From a virus: a stretch of DNA of 5,071 bases. Each line of letters begins with the position of its first letter. Within the stretch, counting starts at the first letter, position 1. The notes beneath the pieces are model-generated. The model saw only the letters and a program-made list of their open reading frames with translations. It searched no databases and was not told where the DNA came from. Shown here piece by piece: positions 56-5,071 of the stretch. The stretch lies in the IMG/VR virus record IMGVR_UViG_3300045988_010453, positions 1 to 5,071 of that record; one strand, written 5' to 3'. A program made the translations under genes and the position numbers.

Positions 56-88
56 AAAAGAGTAGGACGTGGTGGATTCAGGATTTGA
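1..88 (+). CDS. C-terminal part of the 36-aa arginine-rich J/VP8-like DNA-binding protein, continuing from 4994-5016 on the circle. Codons are phased from nt 2 and the TGA stop is at 86-88.
   Basis: Joining 4994-5016 to 1-88 gives MRRRRLSKRGSRRLFRRTSRSRRRNFKRVGRGGFRI*. It has 16 Arg and 2 Lys in 36 residues and no acidic residue. Size and charge match the small DNA-condensing proteins of Microviridae (phiX174 J, gokushovirus VP8/ORF8). Confidence 0.8.
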   Translation, partial: RGSRRLFRRTSRSRRRNFKRVGRGGFRI

Positions 89-107
89 CATATCTACCTA
101 ATCCTGA
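78..107. repeat. Perfect 8-bp inverted repeat TCAGGATT (78-85) / AATCCTGA (100-107) with a 14-nt spacer, bracketing the -35 box of promoter P1.
   Basis: The arms are exact reverse complements by direct reading. The left arm ends on the first T of the -35 box and the right arm contains the TG of the extended -10. Confidence 0.6.
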
Positions 108-113
108 TACAAT
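85..113 (+). promoter_or_regulatory. Promoter P1 (sigma70/sigmaA type) driving VP4. It reads -35 TTGACA (85-90), 17-nt spacer ending TGA (105-107), -10 TACAAT (108-113).
   Basis: It has a perfect -35, optimal spacing, an extended -10 TG and a 5/6 -10. The predicted start at about 120 coincides with the VP4 Shine-Dalgarno AGGTGA (120-125). Confidence 0.75.
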
Positions 114-130
114 CAGTACAGGTGATTAAT

Positions 131-1042
131 ATGGTTTGTTATAATCCTGTTCTCATGTACCCGGTTGAAGGAGCTATTACCAAAAATGGAAAACAGCATT
201 ATAGTTTTTACGGTAGCCTTGCCTCTCACCCTGAACTTGCTGGTGATAGTCGTTTTATTCGCTGTTCTTGTAAGCAATGTATTGGTTGTCGTCTCGAAAA
301 TAGTAGACAATGGGCCGTCCGTGCTGTTCACGAAGCCCGTACTTCGTCTTCTGCTTATTTCGTTACTTGCACTTTCGACGATTATCATTTGCCATATGAT
401 AAAAGCTTAAGCAAGAAATTTCATCAAACTTTCATGAAGAATCTTCGGCGTGAGTATGGTAGCGGCATTCGCTTTCTTGGCTGTGGTGAATATGGTGATC
501 TTCATGCTCGTCCCCATTATCATTATATTTTGTTTAATATTGATTTTGATGACAAAATTTTTCGGTTCCGTACAGACGGTTATAATACTTATACTTCTTC
601 TCGTTTTGCGAAGGTCTGGAAATACGGTATGCATCTTATTGGCGAGTTTAGTTTTGACGCTGCTGCCTATGTCGCCCGTTACATAGTTAAAAAGCAGACA
701 GGCAGTAAAGCTGCTGCTCACTATAAAGGCCGTACGCCTGAGTTTATGCTTGTATCCAATCGTCCAGGCATAGGTTCTAAATGGCTTGAGGAGCATGGTG
801 AAGAGTGTTATGCTAACGATTATATTGTTATCAATGGTAGGAAGATGCGTCCCCCTAGATACTATGATAAAAAATTCGACGAAACTTACCCTCACTGGAT
901 GGAATACATTCGTAATAATCGCATTGAGAAGATGATGCATAATCTTGAGAATAATACTTTTGAGCGCCTTGTTGATCGTTGTAGAGTTCAGGAAGGTAAG
1001 TATACACATTTCCTCGGCAGAAAACTTGACAGAGTATTATGA
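131..1042 (+). CDS. VP4: VP4, an HUH-superfamily rolling-circle replication initiator (phiX174 gpA-like), 303 aa from ATG 131.
   Basis: Motif 1 is FVTCTF. The HUH motif is PHYHYILF (His codons at 515-517 and 521-523). The two-tyrosine catalytic motif is YVARYIVKK (Tyr codons 668-670 and 680-682; compare phiX174 A YVAKYVNKK). The Cys cluster CSCKQCIGCR lies at 263-289. ATG 131 is preferred over the GTG at 122 because 122 lies inside the SD AGGTGA (120-125). Confidence 0.95.
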   Translation: MVCYNPVLMYPVEGAITKNGKQHYSFYGSLASHPELAGDSRFIRCSCKQCIGCRLENSRQWAVRAVHEARTSSSAYFVTCTFDDYHLPYDKSLSKKFHQTFMKNLRREYGSGIRFLGCGEYGDLHARPHYHYILFNIDFDDKIFRFRTDGYNTYTSSRFAKVWKYGMHLIGEFSFDAAAYVARYIVKKQTGSKAAAHYKGRTPEFMLVSNRPGIGSKWLEEHGEECYANDYIVINGRKMRPPRYYDKKFDETYPHWMEYIRNNRIEKMMHNLENNTFERLVDRCRVQEGKYTHFLGRKLDRVL

Positions 1043-1054
1043 TTGTGTTATTAT
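1026..1054 (+). promoter_or_regulatory. Promoter P2, internal and overlapping the VP4 3' end. It reads -35 TTGACA (1026-1031), 17-nt spacer ending TGT (1046-1048), -10 TATTAT (1049-1054).
   Basis: It has the same architecture as P1: perfect -35, 17-nt spacing, extended -10 TG and a 5/6 -10. The predicted start at about 1061 falls on the purine-rich AGAAAGGG (1061-1068), downstream of the ORF94 ATG. Confidence 0.65.
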
Positions 1055-1323
1055 CTAGTCAGAAAGGGTGTGATGTTATCGATAAGTTTAATACTGAATT
1101 TGAGGCTATTAGTAATTATTGCAAAGGAAAAGGCTTGCATTTTGATTTTTTATTTAGAGGCTCCAAATATGCTGCTTATAAGCTGAAGCCTGATAATTGC
1201 AATGTTATTCGTATTGACAATGATTATTTCGTTATTCCTAATTGTACACATCTTGTAATTCGCAGATTTTTAATTGCTTTAAGAAAGGGAGATTTAGACG
1301 TTGAGACTTTATTCAATTTATGA
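1039..1323 (+). CDS. Hypothetical 94-aa protein (ORF94). It is an orphan accessory gene between VP4 and the VP5-like gene, and I recognise no family.
   Basis: ATG 1039-1041 overlaps the VP4 stop TGA 1040-1042 (ATGA coupling) and there is no SD. The 94-codon open frame lies in DNA of about 29% G+C, where stops are frequent, and it exactly fills the gap between two conserved genes. The product has four Cys and no hydrophobic segment. Confidence 0.65.
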   Translation: MIVLLSSQKGCDVIDKFNTEFEAISNYCKGKGLHFDFLFRGSKYAAYKLKPDNCNVIRIDNDYFVIPNCTHLVIRRFLIALRKGDLDVETLFNL

Positions 1324-1582
1324 TTCTAAGGCTGAGCAGTTTAGCCCCCCTCAGGTTTACCACAATGATATGCTTGCATTGAGAGGCTTTGAAAGCATTG
1401 TTAACGACGATAAAATGCTTATTAAAAAATATCCTGAAGATTTTACTCTTTATTATGTTGGTAATCTTAGCGACGTTGACGGTCATTATTACGTTGAGCA
1501 TTCTGACGAATCCCGCGTTCCTGTATTGGTTGGTCGCGCAGTAAATTATGTGCAGAATGTTGACATTCCTCCTAGTGAGTGA
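1301..1582 (+). CDS. 93-aa small non-structural protein resembling the conserved gokushovirus VP5/ORF5 family. Start is TTG.
   Basis: The position (after VP4, before VP3) fits the family. The N-terminus M-R-L-Y-S-I-Y-D-S-K-A-E-x-F-x-P-P and the later YPEDFTLYYVG match my memory of this family. The SD AAGGGAGA (1285-1292) has an aligned spacing of 8 nt to TTG 1301. Tandem stops TGA TAA lie at 1580-1585. The function assignment is from recall, not from a search. Confidence 0.7.
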   Translation: MRLYSIYDSKAEQFSPPQVYHNDMLALRGFESIVNDDKMLIKKYPEDFTLYYVGNLSDVDGHYYVEHSDESRVPVLVGRAVNYVQNVDIPPSE

Positions 1583-1588: not shown

Positions 1589-1604
1589 AATAAAGAGCGT
1601 AGCA

Positions 1605-1642
1605 GAAAAAGAGCGGTCTCGAAACGAGATCGCTCTTTTTTT
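1605..1642 (+). terminator. Rho-independent terminator T1 after the VP5-like gene.
   Basis: The stem is AGAGCGGTCTCG (1610-1621) / CGAGATCGCTCT (1625-1636), 12 bp with one G-T wobble. The loop is AAA, followed by a T run through 1642. A5 at 1605-1609 can extend the stem to 17 bp against the T run, giving a bidirectional-type design. Confidence 0.85.
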
Positions 1643-1690
1643 GTACGCCACGCCCGCCGCGTCTAGGCGCTTTTGAAAGGAGGTGAAATT

Positions 1691-2173: not shown

Positions 2174-2222
2174 GCGTCACCGAAGCCAGTTACTTACTTG
2201 ATGTAACTGGCGTAGGTGACGC
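2174..2222 (+). other. Large interrupted stem-loop directly after the VP3 stop. It is a candidate weak terminator or mRNA 3' stabiliser, and a candidate ssDNA replication signal.
   Basis: The outer stem is GCGTCACC (2174-2181) / GGTGACGC (2215-2222). The inner stem is GCCAGTTAC (2185-2193) / GTAACTGGC (2203-2211). The internal loop is 3x3 (GAA/GTA) and the apical loop is 9 nt, TTACTTGAT (2194-2202). It is followed by AAAAATAAA, not a T run. Confidence 0.8.
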
Positions 2223-2296: not shown

Positions 2297-4012
2297 TTGG
2301 CTCGAAAAATTAGAGTTCGCGGTCATCGGTTTAGCGATGCTCCTGCGATGTATATGAGAAGGACTAAATTTGACCGCTCGCATGTTTATAAAACTACTTT
2401 TAATTCAGGTAAGCTTATACCTGTATTTGTTGACGAGGTTTTGCCTGGCGATACTACTCGTCTGTCTGTTAATTATTTTGCTCGCTTGGCTACTCCTATT
2501 AAACCTATTATGGATAATATTTATCTTGATTGGTTCTTTTTCTTTGTACCGAATCGGCTTGTGTGGGAACACTGGCAGAATTTTTGTTTTGAACAGCAGG
2601 ACCCGGATGATAGCACTGATTATGTCATTCCTACTGTTACTGCTACTGGTAATACTGCTAATGCCTATGTAGGCTCTCTTTGGGATTATTTTGGCTTGCC
2701 TGTGAATACTTCTGGTAATATTTCTGGCATTAGTGCTCTTCCGTTCCGTTGTGTGTATCTTATTTGGAACGAATGGTTTAGAGATGAAAATTTGCAGAAG
2801 TCTGTTAAAATTCAAAAAGGTGATACTAATGAGGTTTTAAACTCTACTAGAGCTTCTGATCAGCCTTCTTGGGTATTTACTTCAGGTACTAATTTAGTTC
2901 CCGGGTTAGCTTGTCCTCCTCGTGGTAAACGTCATGACTATTTTACTTCTGCTCTTCCTTGGACCCAAAAAGGTCCTGGCGTTGAGATTCCGTTAGTAGG
3001 TAATGCTCCTGTTTATGGTACCGGACTGCCTATGGCTTTGACTAGTACTGGTTCTGATCGTCTTAACTTGATGGTTTATGAGGGTGCTGGCAGCCATGCC
3101 AATGCTCGTACTTTTATTAATGCTTATGCAAAAGCTCAATTGCCCACTCCTGCTACTGGTGCCTGGACTGTTCCGTCAGTTTCCGGAAGTTCTCCGGCTA
3201 TAGGTCTTGCTACTAATGGTGATAGTGGTGTTTATGCCGATTTGAGTTCTGTCTCTTCTGCTACGATTAACAATTTACGTACGGCTTTCCAAATGCAGAA
3301 GTTTTATGAGCGGCTCGCACGTGGTGGTAGTAGGTATACAGAGGTTCTTCGTTCTTTCTTTGGTGTAGTTTCTCCTGATGCACGGTTGCAGCGTCCTGAA
3401 TTCCTTGGCGCTTTTACTAAAATGGTGAATGTTAATCCAATAGCACAGACCTCTGCCACTGATAGTACCTCACCTCAAGGCAATCTTTCTGCTTATGGTG
3501 TTACTGCTTCTAAGTTCCATGGTTTCGTTAAATCTTTTGTTGAACATGGCTATGTAATAGGATTTGTCTGTGCTCGTGCTGATCTTACCTATCAGCAAGG
3601 TATCAATAAAATGTGGCTTCGCTCTACGGTTTATGATTTTTATTGGCCGACTTTTGCTCATCTTGGTGAGCAGGCTATCGAATTGCGTGAAATTTATGCT
3701 CAAGGCAATGAAGATGATTCTATTGTATTTGGTTATCAAGAACGTTATGCTGAATATCGGTATAAGCCTTCTCAGATTACAGGTAAGTTCCGTAGTTCTG
3801 TTACTGGTGGCAATTTAGATGTTTGGCACCTTTCTCAGTATTTCAATAATGCACCAACTCTTAACGAGGAGTTTATTGTTGAGAATCCGCCTATTAAACG
3901 TATTGTTGCGGTTCAGGATGAGCCTGAGTTTTTGCTTGATATAGGTTTCCGTTATACTACGGTTCGTCCTATGCCTATGTTTGGCACTCCTGGTCTTGTT
4001 GATCATTTTTAA
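2297..4012 (+). CDS. VP1: VP1 major capsid protein (Microviridae F-protein family), 571 aa, TTG start.
   Basis: Hallmark segments are LIPVFVDEVLPGDT, FFFVPNRLVW, RCVYLIWNEWFRDENL, KRHDYFTSALPW, INNLRTAFQMQKFYERLARGGSRYTEVLRSFFGV and RLQRPEFLG. TTG 2297 is the first start after an in-frame TAA (2261-2263). It is preceded by the SD GAAGGTGAG (2285-2293) at an aligned spacing of 7 nt. The first ATG (2349) has no SD and would remove the conserved HRFSDAP N-terminal segment. Confidence 0.97.
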   Translation: MARKIRVRGHRFSDAPAMYMRRTKFDRSHVYKTTFNSGKLIPVFVDEVLPGDTTRLSVNYFARLATPIKPIMDNIYLDWFFFFVPNRLVWEHWQNFCFEQQDPDDSTDYVIPTVTATGNTANAYVGSLWDYFGLPVNTSGNISGISALPFRCVYLIWNEWFRDENLQKSVKIQKGDTNEVLNSTRASDQPSWVFTSGTNLVPGLACPPRGKRHDYFTSALPWTQKGPGVEIPLVGNAPVYGTGLPMALTSTGSDRLNLMVYEGAGSHANARTFINAYAKAQLPTPATGAWTVPSVSGSSPAIGLATNGDSGVYADLSSVSSATINNLRTAFQMQKFYERLARGGSRYTEVLRSFFGVVSPDARLQRPEFLGAFTKMVNVNPIAQTSATDSTSPQGNLSAYGVTASKFHGFVKSFVEHGYVIGFVCARADLTYQQGINKMWLRSTVYDFYWPTFAHLGEQAIELREIYAQGNEDDSIVFGYQERYAEYRYKPSQITGKFRSSVTGGNLDVWHLSQYFNNAPTLNEEFIVENPPIKRIVAVQDEPEFLLDIGFRYTTVRPMPMFGTPGLVDHF

Positions 4013-4024
4013 GTAGGTGATATT

Positions 4025-4753
4025 ATGTCTTGGCTTTCTGATACACTTGGCAGTATTGCTGGTTCTGTTTTTGGTTCTGCCGTTCAGAATCATTATAATT
4101 CTGCTGGTGCTGAACAGCAGAATGAGTGGAACGTTGAGAATTATAAACATCGTTATCAATGGTCTATTGAAGACATGCGTTCAGCTGGTCTTAATCCTAT
4201 TCTTGCTGCTACTAATGGTATAGGTGGTTCTGTATCTGGAGCTTCAGCTGCTTCTATAGGTTTGAGTGATATAGGTTCTACGATGAACTCTGCTAGAGCC
4301 GCTAGTGCCTCTCAGAGGCAGGCAAAGAATGCTGAGCATCTTGCAGTATCTCAGATTGATAAAAACGTTGCAGAAGCCGATTCTGTGCGTCAGAGCACCC
4401 ATGGAACAGTTCTCCAAAATGGTATTCTTGCAAATGATTTGAATCTGCGTGAGCAGACTTATGAACAGCGCCTTGGTTATGAGCTTGAAAAAATGCGCCT
4501 TGAACTTGAAAATATGCGTCTTCAAGGTTCTTACTTAAGTTCGGGTGTATTAAGTAACATTGCTTCTGCTAATCGGTCTAATTCTGCTGCTGCTTTTGAT
4601 AATATTCAGACTGAAATGGCAGGCATGGAGCGTGATTTTTATAAGAATATTGAGAGTTTAACTGGTGTACCTAAATCTGTTTCTACTGGGGTTGGTTCTA
4701 CTGTTAAAAATGTTTTAGGTATCCTTGGTGGTCGTTATTTTGGAAGGAGATAA
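4025..4753 (+). CDS. VP2: VP2 minor capsid / DNA pilot protein, gokushovirus type, 242 aa.
   Basis: It lies immediately downstream of VP1. The N-terminus is Gly/Ser/Ala-rich. The motif YQWSIEDMRSAGLNPILA is typical of gokushovirus VP2 (AGLNPxLA). A central heptad-like, Gln/Glu/Leu-rich region follows. The SD AGGTGA (4015-4020) has an aligned spacing of 7 nt. Confidence 0.88.
   Translation: MSWLSDTLGSIAGSVFGSAVQNHYNSAGAEQQNEWNVENYKHRYQWSIEDMRSAGLNPILAATNGIGGSVSGASAASIGLSDIGSTMNSARAASASQRQAKNAEHLAVSQIDKNVAEADSVRQSTHGTVLQNGILANDLNLREQTYEQRLGYELEKMRLELENMRLQGSYLSSGVLSNIASANRSNSAAAFDNIQTEMAGMERDFYKNIESLTGVPKSVSTGVGSTVKNVLGILGGRYFGRR
4484..4525 (+). repeat. In-frame tandem duplication of a 21-nt unit inside VP2 (LEKMRLE / LENMRLQ).
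   Basis: Unit 1 is cttgaaaaaatgcgccttgaa (4484-4504) and unit 2 is cttgaaaatatgcgtcttcaa (4505-4525). They are 18/21 identical and both start on a codon boundary. Confidence 0.85.
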
Positions 4754-4757
4754 TTTT

Positions 4758-4997
4758 ATGTCTAATAAAACTACTATGATTTTAACTTTTATTGTTTCCG
4801 TTGTTGTGCCTTTCATCCAGGAAGTTGTTGATCTTATTGAAGCTCTTAAAGGTAAAGCGTCTTCTAATACTGTTACTGCGAAAAAAGTTGCTTCGGACTT
4901 TCAAGCCGATGTTGCTCAGCTTGTTGAGCCAGTTTTAAATAAAAATGATTCTAAAAAAACTAGTCGTTTTTTCGGTTCTTGGAGGGATGCTAAATGA
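4758..4997 (+). CDS. Hypothetical 79-aa protein (ORF79) with an N-terminal hydrophobic, proline-containing helix. It is a candidate membrane or lysis protein.
   Basis: The SD GGAAGGAGA (4742-4750) has an aligned spacing of 7 nt to ATG 4758, four nt after the VP2 stop. Residues about 5-24 (TTMILTFIVSVVVPFIQEVV, Pro18) are hydrophobic. The rest is hydrophilic with a basic tail, KKTSRFFGSWRDAK. The stop TGA (4995-4997) overlaps the next ATG (ATGA). The track start at TTG 4725 is rejected because it overlaps VP2 and has the SD inside the ORF. Confidence 0.7.
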   Translation: MSNKTTMILTFIVSVVVPFIQEVVDLIEALKGKASSNTVTAKKVASDFQADVAQLVEPVLNKNDSKKTSRFFGSWRDAK

Positions 4998-5071
4998 GAC
5001 GTCGTCGTTTATCTAAACGAGGCTCTCGCCGTCTTTTTCGGCGTACCTCCCGCTCTCGTCGTCGAAATTTT
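4994..5071 (+). CDS. N-terminal part of the 36-aa arginine-rich J/VP8-like DNA-binding protein. It is truncated by the window end and completed by nt 56-88 of the circle.
   Basis: ATG 4994-4996 overlaps the ORF79 stop (ATGA). The SD GGAGG (4981-4985) has an aligned spacing of 8 nt. The translation begins MRRRRLSKRGSRRLFRRTSRSRRRNF and continues in frame into the duplicated left end. Confidence 0.8.
   Translation, partial: MRRRRLSKRGSRRLFRRTSRSRRRNF
5017..5071. repeat. Right copy of the 55-nt terminal redundancy, identical to 1-55.
   Basis: The match to nt 1-55 is exact and ends at the last base of the window. Confidence 0.97.

Follow-up and report, generated by a model that had tools for sequence, protein, structure and literature searches.

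Comparative sequence analysis identifies ORF94, an open reading frame (ORF) of IMG/VR virus record IMGVR_UViG_3300045988_010453, as a genuine protein-coding gene and as a member of an uncharacterised, clade-wide family of gokushovirus genes that occupies the slot between VP4 and VP5 and is called ORF-X here. The window, that is, the whole stretch of 5,071 nucleotides (nt) analysed, is a complete circular gokushovirus genome of 5016 nt, bases 1-55 being repeated at 5017-5071 (a 55-nt terminal redundancy), and its closest relatives in GenBank are gokushoviruses from human, pig and dog faeces with about 84% nucleotide identity. The gokushovirus core consists of six genes, and VP5 is the protein that switches from double-stranded to single-stranded DNA (dsDNA-to-ssDNA switch protein; PMC7062461). 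Gokushoviruses are also described as having hardly any accessory genes (PMC9239249). Despite this view of a six-gene core, a large clade from the gut keeps a seventh gene under selection. The family is already present in the databases, where it is largely unannotated and uncharacterised, and ORF94 adds a member to it. A literature search found no description of an ORF-X gene or of non-AUG starts in gokushoviruses.

A protein search with ORF94 returned 243 homologous clusters at 90% identity (E <= 0.01). The best 120 of the 243 had E values from 9e-51 to 4.5e-25 and stem nearly all from contigs of about 5 kb or fragments of such contigs. The closest homologue (P0001) is 90% identical, is also 94 amino acids (aa) long and was recovered in three independent assemblies. 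In IMG/VR, 223 contigs encode a relative of ORF-X in the VP4-VP5 slot, and a profile search yielded two full-length clusters at 50% identity and one distant cluster. The gene is also found in the same slot of a syntenic genome in a lineage that is 42% identical (P0128 and P0140; loci L084-L086). A representative library of 1.84 billion proteins yielded no relatives beyond the clade, apart from P0128 and some chimeric fragments. An earlier note, made from the letters of the window, had described ORF94 as a strain-specific orphan; with homologues in hundreds of genomes, always in the same slot, this description has to be given up.

In GenBank relatives, VP4 and VP5 are separated by about 220-240 nt without annotation, which hold an ORF of 80 codons that can be aligned with ORF94. 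ORF-X is encoded in 10-11 of 50,697 GenBank phage records and is never annotated as a coding sequence of its own; in a tblastn search, all 10 records that encode the protein left the gene unannotated. VP5, by comparison, is encoded in 322 records, which supports the view that the gene is accessory to the six-gene core, in line with the accessory function suggested in the earlier note. To the same uncharacterised family belong A0A858NKL6 from UniProt (79 aa), the nr entry "MAG TPA: hypothetical protein [Microviridae sp.]" (P0062) and unannotated ORFs in KX513872, KT264818, OP971938, MG945759 and others. These members are 56-90% identical to ORF94 and share with it the order VP4 - X - VP5, the predicted fold and the core motif FRGSKYAAY...VIRID.DYFV...IRRFL.ALRKGD. 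The homologues fall into N-terminal length classes of 94, 84 and 79 aa. ORF94 belongs to the 94-codon class, which starts on the VP4 stop, whereas most relatives have 79 or 84 codons and start after a Shine-Dalgarno (SD) site of their own.

That the frame is translated is indicated by its conservation. The core of 75 codons from E20 to the stop contained neither an indel nor a stop in 82 distinct sequences, and the other two frames over this core had 2.7 and 15 stops on average. By the method of Nei and Gojobori, the ratio of non-synonymous to synonymous change (dN/dS) in these sequences was 0.29 in the ORF-X frame but 0.93 and 1.14 in the other two. Across the same 77 loci, dN/dS was 0.28 for ORF-X, 0.058 for VP5 and 0.069 for the C terminus of VP4, and dS was equal (0.72 for ORF-X, 0.71 for VP5). 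Non-synonymous change is thus 4-5 times faster in ORF-X than in its neighbours; equal dS together with the higher dN/dS means that ORF-X shares the history of the neighbouring genes under far weaker constraint. No close relative lacks the gene, and a disrupted frame was not seen in any of 87 loci. The estimate of the earlier note that a stop should occur about once in 12 codons, making the open frame unlikely to be accidental, is borne out as well: at the composition of ORF94 a chance stop is expected once per 12.15 codons, and the probability of 97 open codons is 2.4e-4.

ORF94 was found again at 1039-1323, its ATG (1039-1041) overlapping the TGA of VP4 (1040-1042) in the sequence ATGA. Its G+C content is 30.2%, compared with 39.7% for the genome; just 0.28% of all 285-nt segments are equally low, and the minimum, at 1035, coincides with ORF94. 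The counts reported earlier for single lines were exact (30.0% in 1081-1140, 33.3% in 1141-1200 and 25.0% in 1201-1260). The low content of the gene therefore stands, but the flanks of 45-47% with which it had been contrasted were picked high lines: VP5 as a whole has 38.7% and VP4 40.1%, and individual VP5 lines go down to 31.7-35%. Similarly, of the shift in codon use the preference for TTA as Leu codon is clear (8/11 in ORF94, 16/104 elsewhere; Fisher p = 1.3e-4), whereas that for AGA as Arg codon is marginal (3/5 versus 15/84; p = 0.054). The G+C content at third codon positions (GC3) is 0.242 and thus within the range of the other genes (0.21-0.32), which places the deficit in the first and second positions (GC1 and GC2). 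In 84/84 loci the core has a lower G+C content than the remainder of the locus (mean 0.337 versus 0.416), and in the distant, 42%-identical lineage the gene has 0.288 versus 0.40. With normal GC3 and a dS equal to that of VP5, the A+T richness is an old and family-wide trait and not the trace of a foreign or recent origin that the earlier note had implied. Its source is the amino-acid make-up of the protein, in which F, I, K, N, D, Y and L are frequent, together with the use of TTA for Leu; the gene is weakly constrained and the ssDNA genome T-rich.

The 8-mer AGAAAGGG was said to bracket most of the low-G+C segment. It does occur at just two sites in the genome, 1061 and 1282, but both copies are ribosome-binding sites, one in the region of the ORF-X start and one of VP5, and not insertion scars. 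The copy at 1061 is part of the SD site of the family (AGAAAGGGTGTGAT) and is kept in all relatives as AGAAA(T/G)GAGGTGAT or AGAAAGGAG; the copy at 1282 is the SD of VP5 (AGAAAGGGAG). Overlap with this SD and with the VP5 coding sequence accounts for the third positions of ORF94, which are almost invariant in codons 83-85 and invariant in codons 88-95, and for at least a part of the conservation of R82-D85 and E89-L94. As stated before, there is no SD ahead of ATG 1039. Five of the six other listed genes have an SD at an aligned spacing of 7-8 nt; for VP5 the spacing is 13 by automatic and about 8 by manual alignment.

Two promoter-like sites, P1 upstream of VP4 and P2 across the VP4-ORF94 junction, are the best of the genome. 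The predicted transcription start of P2, at about 1061, lies downstream of ATG 1039, as the earlier note had it, and this ATG is the only canonical start of ORF94 in this genome; P1 is therefore the only predicted source of transcripts that carry ATG 1039. The P2 sequence CTTGACA-N17-TGnTAT(C/T)AT was present in all 84 loci then in hand, with occasional single-base variants, and also in the L084 lineage. It is kept even in loci whose stretch after the VP4 stop is non-coding. Downstream of VP5 lies a predicted intrinsic terminator, and P2, ORF-X, VP5 and this terminator look like a compact, discrete transcription unit made of predicted signals. An A tract flanks the U tract of the terminator hairpin, so that it may terminate in both directions. 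A further hairpin follows VP3 (2174-2222, plus strand; -32.6 kcal/mol, z about -8.8) and has no U tract.

Could the segment be a recent insertion of a foreign, strain-specific gene bracketed by direct repeats of AGAAAGGG? It is the segment of lowest G+C in the genome, with a bias towards TTA and the 8-mer at two places. However, homologues in the same slot of hundreds of genomes, the low G+C shared by all loci and the distant lineage, the normal GC3 and the dS that matches that of VP5 all argue against it, relatives keep both 8-mers as SD sites, and the ORF reaches past both of them. The comparative data, with no patchy presence, no deviant synonymous signal and no insertion scars, refute a recent foreign gene, and we consider this origin extremely improbable. 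It is also very improbable that the A+T-rich stretch is mainly an element at the level of DNA or RNA, such as an origin, a packaging signal or a structured RNA, in which the open frame is incidental. A compositional dip conserved across the family would be in line with such an element, but third positions are free to vary in codons 20-82 (entropy by codon position 0.47, 0.34 and 0.73), and this free synonymous variation speaks against it. Synonymous constraint is confined to the overlap with VP5 and its SD, there is no Rfam match, the folding of the 5' region is ordinary (z = 0.42) and stops abound in both other frames.

The start of the gene is less uniform than its core. Codon E20 lies 45 nt from the VP4 stop in 58 of the 87 loci, 57 nt in 14, 56 nt in 11, 58 nt in two and 46 and 47 nt in one each; the window and its nearest relatives are in the 56-nt class. 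Almost every locus at 45 or 57 nt has a GTG, ATG or TTG beside the SD that is in frame. A distance of 56 nt instead of 57 or 45 is a shift by 1 nt that puts the SD-proximal ATG out of frame, and in this class all 11 loci have an in-frame ATG or GTG that overlaps the VP4 TGA. A sequencing error as the source of the 56-nt class is ruled out, since the three independent assemblies of the nearest relative all belong to it and 38 of the best 120 clusters (93-94 aa) share it. In a neighbour-joining tree, loci of the 56-, 57- and 58-nt classes are intermixed, which indicates that 1-nt indels are recurrent. In several loci (L006, L007, L009, L011, L016, L018 and L028) the SD-proximal ATG is followed by a run of five, six or seven T (homologous to 1069-1080), the length of which sets this ATG in or out of frame without breaking the downstream ORF. 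Programmed frameshifting at this run was set aside, because the window genome and its subclade have no T run there. Also rejected was a functional ORF in frame 2, read from the SD-proximal ATG over 1073-1186: in the closest relatives (L087-L089) the starts are out of frame and a stop follows within a few codons, and the ORF probably lacks a function.

A second feature of the start region is an in-frame Ile codon, which is present in 87/87 loci (ATT in 62, ATA in 22, ATC in three) and also in the 42%-identical L084 lineage. Its aligned distance from the SD is 7-9 nt, and of 45 starts of other genes, examined in seven of the genomes, 42 have this distance too. The SD-proximal ATG, GTG or TTG is at an aligned spacing of just -1 to 2.

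According to an AlphaFold2 (AF2) model computed with 48 family sequences, ORF94 is a domain of about 80 residues of α/β type (α-β-α-β-β-α-α) with a disordered N terminus and no detectable known fold. The mean confidence score (pLDDT) was 80.5; residues 1-15 were below 50 and blocks within 21-80 reached 88-97. The predicted elements are α1 (20-30), β1 (39-41), α2 (43-49), β2 (54-59), β3 (62-67), α3 (68-82) and α4 (88-92). Invariant or nearly so are F35, F39, R40, G41, K43, Y44, A45, A46, Y47, K50, V56, R58, D60, Y63, L72, I74, R75 and R76; conserved basic or aromatic residues are R40, K43, Y44, Y47, K50, R58, R75 and R76. The four cysteines and the lack of a hydrophobic segment noted earlier were found again (grand average of hydropathy, GRAVY, 0.02). 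It had also been stated that the protein resembles nothing recognisable, and indeed Pfam, PHROGs, PADLOC and NCBIfam gave no match for ORF94, P0121 or P0128, and a Foldseek search of the model against the PDB gave a best E of 0.74 and TM scores all below 0.32. Against BFVD, Foldseek found the family member A0A858NKL6 (E = 2e-9, TM 0.76/0.90, root-mean-square deviation (rmsd) 1.4 Å). The one other structural match there, second in rank, H9NCF0 (61 aa), is weak and unnamed (probability 0.98, E = 0.13, target TM 0.56).

Three assignments were dropped. A bacterial STING (Cap12) domain gave the only matches of a sequence-profile search of the PDB, weak ones at E 0.14 and 0.6, which were absent from the Foldseek search of the PDB and from the search with a broader profile. 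Paralogy to VP5 found neither a match to Pfam PF20577 nor more than 0.1% probability in hhalign against a VP5 alignment. Membership of ORF94 among the winged-helix proteins has no significant PDB match, and α2, with just 7 residues, is too short for a helix-turn-helix.

The slot between VP4 and VP5 is used in other lineages as well. In the few sampled GenBank records with readable coordinates VP5 starts directly after VP4. Other records have ORFs in the slot: 81 aa in MG945719, with eight homologous clusters (P0132-P0139), 95-100 aa in MG945805, MT135424 and MG945525, 80 aa in KX513874, and 120 aa with a hydrophobic N terminus in KT264820 (L091). Unannotated slot ORFs were seen at 1142-1504 in L091, 920-1165 in L090, about 900-1200 in L096-L098 and about 910-1153 in L095, and the slot ORFs of other lineages are each somewhat lower in G+C than their genome. 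Those of other pig and human gut gokushoviruses, namely MG945719 with its family, MG945805, MT135424, MG945525 and KX513874, resemble ORF-X in position, size (75-100 aa) and the order α1-β1-α2-β2-β3-α3, and a hairpin motif V(I/L)(R/K)(I/V)DxDYFVI is common to them and ORF-X. They differ from it in an identity below 25%, a longer α2, the lack of an internal promoter and a canonical start at normal SD spacing. An ORF-X profile that included bridging sequences matched the MG945719/MG945805 group in hhalign with 83% probability (E 8e-6) over β1-α2-β2-β3, and the AF2 model of this group (pLDDT 85.8) has six elements in the order of the first six of ORF-X. From these sequences and models it is probable, but not proven, that a fast-evolving superfamily occupies the VP4-VP5 slot in several lineages. 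The top PDB matches of the P0132 model were small winged-helix DNA-binding proteins, at values that are not significant (E 0.04-1, TM about 0.3, rmsd > 10 Å). SSV1 F-93, STIV F93 and PadR-like proteins have in common with P0132 a helix, a β-hairpin "wing" and a long C-terminal helix; the ORF94 model, with its α2 of 7 residues, gave no such match below E = 4.7.

How is the protein made and what does it do? By default, the ORF94 protein would be made most simply by termination and reinitiation at the ATGA overlap with VP4. A start at ATG 1039 would be carried only by P1 transcripts and would add an unstructured leader of about 13 residues. Made together with VP4 and VP5, ORF-X may modulate their action as a small nucleic-acid- or protein-binding accessory factor of the module that leads from replication to packaging. 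We infer this function tentatively, and a host-directed role fits about equally well. The replication-to-packaging role is suggested by the apparent unit with VP5, by the overlap that puts the VP5 SD inside ORF-X and by the position after the replication initiator, and also by the conserved basic and aromatic residues and the fact that the gene was never lost in the clade. Further hints come from the probable distant superfamily in the slot and the weak winged-helix matches of its model. A positional analogue is gene K of phiX174, a small non-core gene that spans the junction at which the replication gene (A) ends and the switch-protein gene (C) begins; the comparison is one of position and not of sequence. 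The K protein is hydrophobic and its gene is overprinted far into A and C, whereas ORF94 is soluble by its GRAVY and shares only 4 nt and 23 nt with the adjacent genes.

To the reading as a whole, a genuine ORF-X gene with ATGA-coupled expression and an accessory role in replication or packaging, we give an even chance. Several observations weigh against it. Two loci (L009 and L028) have no canonical in-frame start at all. The L084 lineage has a strong SD, GGAAGGAGG, with no canonical start nearby in any frame and an ATA at spacing 7; coupling accounts for neither case. ATGA at the end of VP4 occurs in every length class as a consequence of the Leu-stop ending of VP4, and so does not show that coupling was selected for. 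Judged by eye and not quantified, the nucleotides that vary within the N-terminal extension are the ones that vary in classes where this stretch is non-coding. Promoters and terminator are only consensus or thermodynamic predictions. A scan of 185,579 GTDB species genomes found no prophage copy. No homology or fold match points to a function, the winged-helix matches are not significant (best E 0.04) and come from a putative relative and not from ORF94, and the net charge of ORF94 is just about +2.

The same loci suggest another mode of initiation, in which all members are translated from the invariant in-frame Ile codon (ATC 1078-1080 here). Such a non-AUG start would keep expression low, and ATG 1039 as well as the SD-proximal NTG codons would be irrelevant. 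It would account for an Ile codon that never varies, at the usual SD spacing, in a segment that AF2 predicts to be disordered, next to ATG or GTG codons that fall outside this spacing; for the recurrence of +1 and -1 nt indels between the SD and this codon on interleaved branches; for L009 and L028; and for L084, where no ATG, GTG or TTG is within reach of the SD in any frame. Genes with a conserved AUU start exist, for example infC. These resemble ORF-X in a strong SD followed by a conserved AUH codon at optimal spacing, but in ORF-X initiation at the Ile codon is only putative and AUA and AUC are used in addition. Moreover, known bacteria initiate very poorly at AUA and AUC, it is not explained why the codon never turned into ATG, and the Ile may be invariant just because the protein needs it for its structure or for an interaction. 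A canonical upstream start exists in each of the 11 loci at 56 nt, L009 and L028 could be assembly errors or defective genomes, and the alignment of short SD motifs is partly subjective. On balance, we regard a non-AUG start as a serious but doubtful alternative to coupling at the ATGA.

With respect to function, the alternative to a replication or packaging factor is a host-directed accessory protein that acts on a host target in host takeover, anti-defence or superinfection exclusion, as the earlier note proposed. The restriction to a clade and the few GenBank records compared with those of VP5, the fast non-synonymous evolution, a slot that is empty in most sampled gokushoviruses and otherwise filled with diverse small ORFs such as that of KT264820, and expression alongside an early replication gene are what such a protein would lead one to expect. 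It is, however, unusual for a dispensable counter-defence gene never to be lost or disrupted across 87 loci, and the overlap couples ORF-X tightly to VP5. A known fold was not found, PADLOC gave no match at E <= 1 (a weak test, as it covers defence systems and not anti-defence genes), and the STING matches vanish with a broader profile and in the fold search. A host-directed role is about as likely as the one in replication or packaging, and neither is more than tentative.

Adding ORF-X to the annotation would correct GenBank records and provide a defined candidate for studies of the control of replication, packaging or the host. Its unusual start arrangement offers a compact system in which either coupling by termination and reinitiation or initiation at a non-AUG codon could be tested. 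The most far-reaching reading, which we consider unlikely, is that of an overlooked seventh conserved gene of mammalian-gut gokushoviruses that belongs to a fast-evolving slot superfamily, has a new small α/β fold and starts at a non-AUG codon (AUU, AUA or AUC) in all members, its limited expression tuning the replication-to-packaging switch or an interaction with the host. If true, the invariant non-AUG start would explain why frame-shifting indels upstream of it were tolerated repeatedly.

Table 1. Genes and predicted signals in the window (positions in nt; overlaps and signals as described in the text).
Feature	Position	Strand	Remarks
P1, promoter-like	85..113	+	upstream of VP4; 11/12 positions; extended -10
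VP4, replication initiator	131..1042	+	PF23343 2.3e-16; phrog_942 5e-113; stop overlaps ORF94 start
P2, promoter-like	1026..1054	+	TTGACA(1026-1031)-17-TATTAT(1049-1054); extended -10 TG; 11/12 positions; spans VP4 stop and ORF94 ATG
ORF94, canonical ORF	1039..1323	+	94 aa; stop TGA 1321-1323
Family SD site, AGAAAGGGTGTGAT	1061..1074	+	holds first 8-mer copy; ATG 1073-1075 next, out of ORF94 frame
Out-of-frame hydrophobic ORF from SD-proximal ATG	1073..1186	+	37 codons; particular to this genome
Conserved part of ORF94 protein	1078..1320	+	from Ile14 codon (1078-1080), common to all length classes; core E20-L94 = 1096-1320
Second 8-mer copy, VP5 SD (AGAAAGGGAG) and VP5 TTG 1301	1282..1303	+	inside ORF94 from codons R82-D85 onward
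VP5 (Phage_ORF5)	1301..1582	+	PF20577 6e-20; phrog_1670 1.5e-24; 23-nt overlap with ORF94 3' end
Predicted intrinsic-terminator hairpin	1596..1650	+	19 bp; U tract; -35.5 kcal/mol; z = -8.4; 0/200 shuffles as stable
VP3, scaffold protein	1691-2173
VP1, capsid protein	2297-4012
VP2, pilot protein	4025-4753
79-aa ORF	4758-4997	+	hydrophobic N-terminal segment; between VP2 and Arg-rich VP8-like gene
Arg-rich 36-aa ORF (MRRRRLSKRGSRRLFRRTSRSRRRNFKRVGRGGFRI), VP8/J-like	4994-5071 joined to 56-96	+	spans genome junction

The start of VP5 is called inconsistently (1301 in the window, 1133 in L001, 3943 in L002 and 3941 in L003). In GenBank relatives VP5 is read from an upstream GTG or TTG, which gives 102 aa and an overlap with ORF-X of 49 nt. 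In the window TTG 1301 is the sole available start (93 aa), and the Pfam match begins at residue 3 of this short form.

The 79-aa ORF between VP2 and the VP8-like gene appears to be a second non-core gene and, from its sequence, a candidate membrane or lysis protein. It matches phrog_23638, of unknown function, over its full length (E = 3.6e-50) and gave a weak PADLOC match to a "4TM effector" (E = 0.006). It is conserved in relatives and is labelled hypothetical in KX513872.

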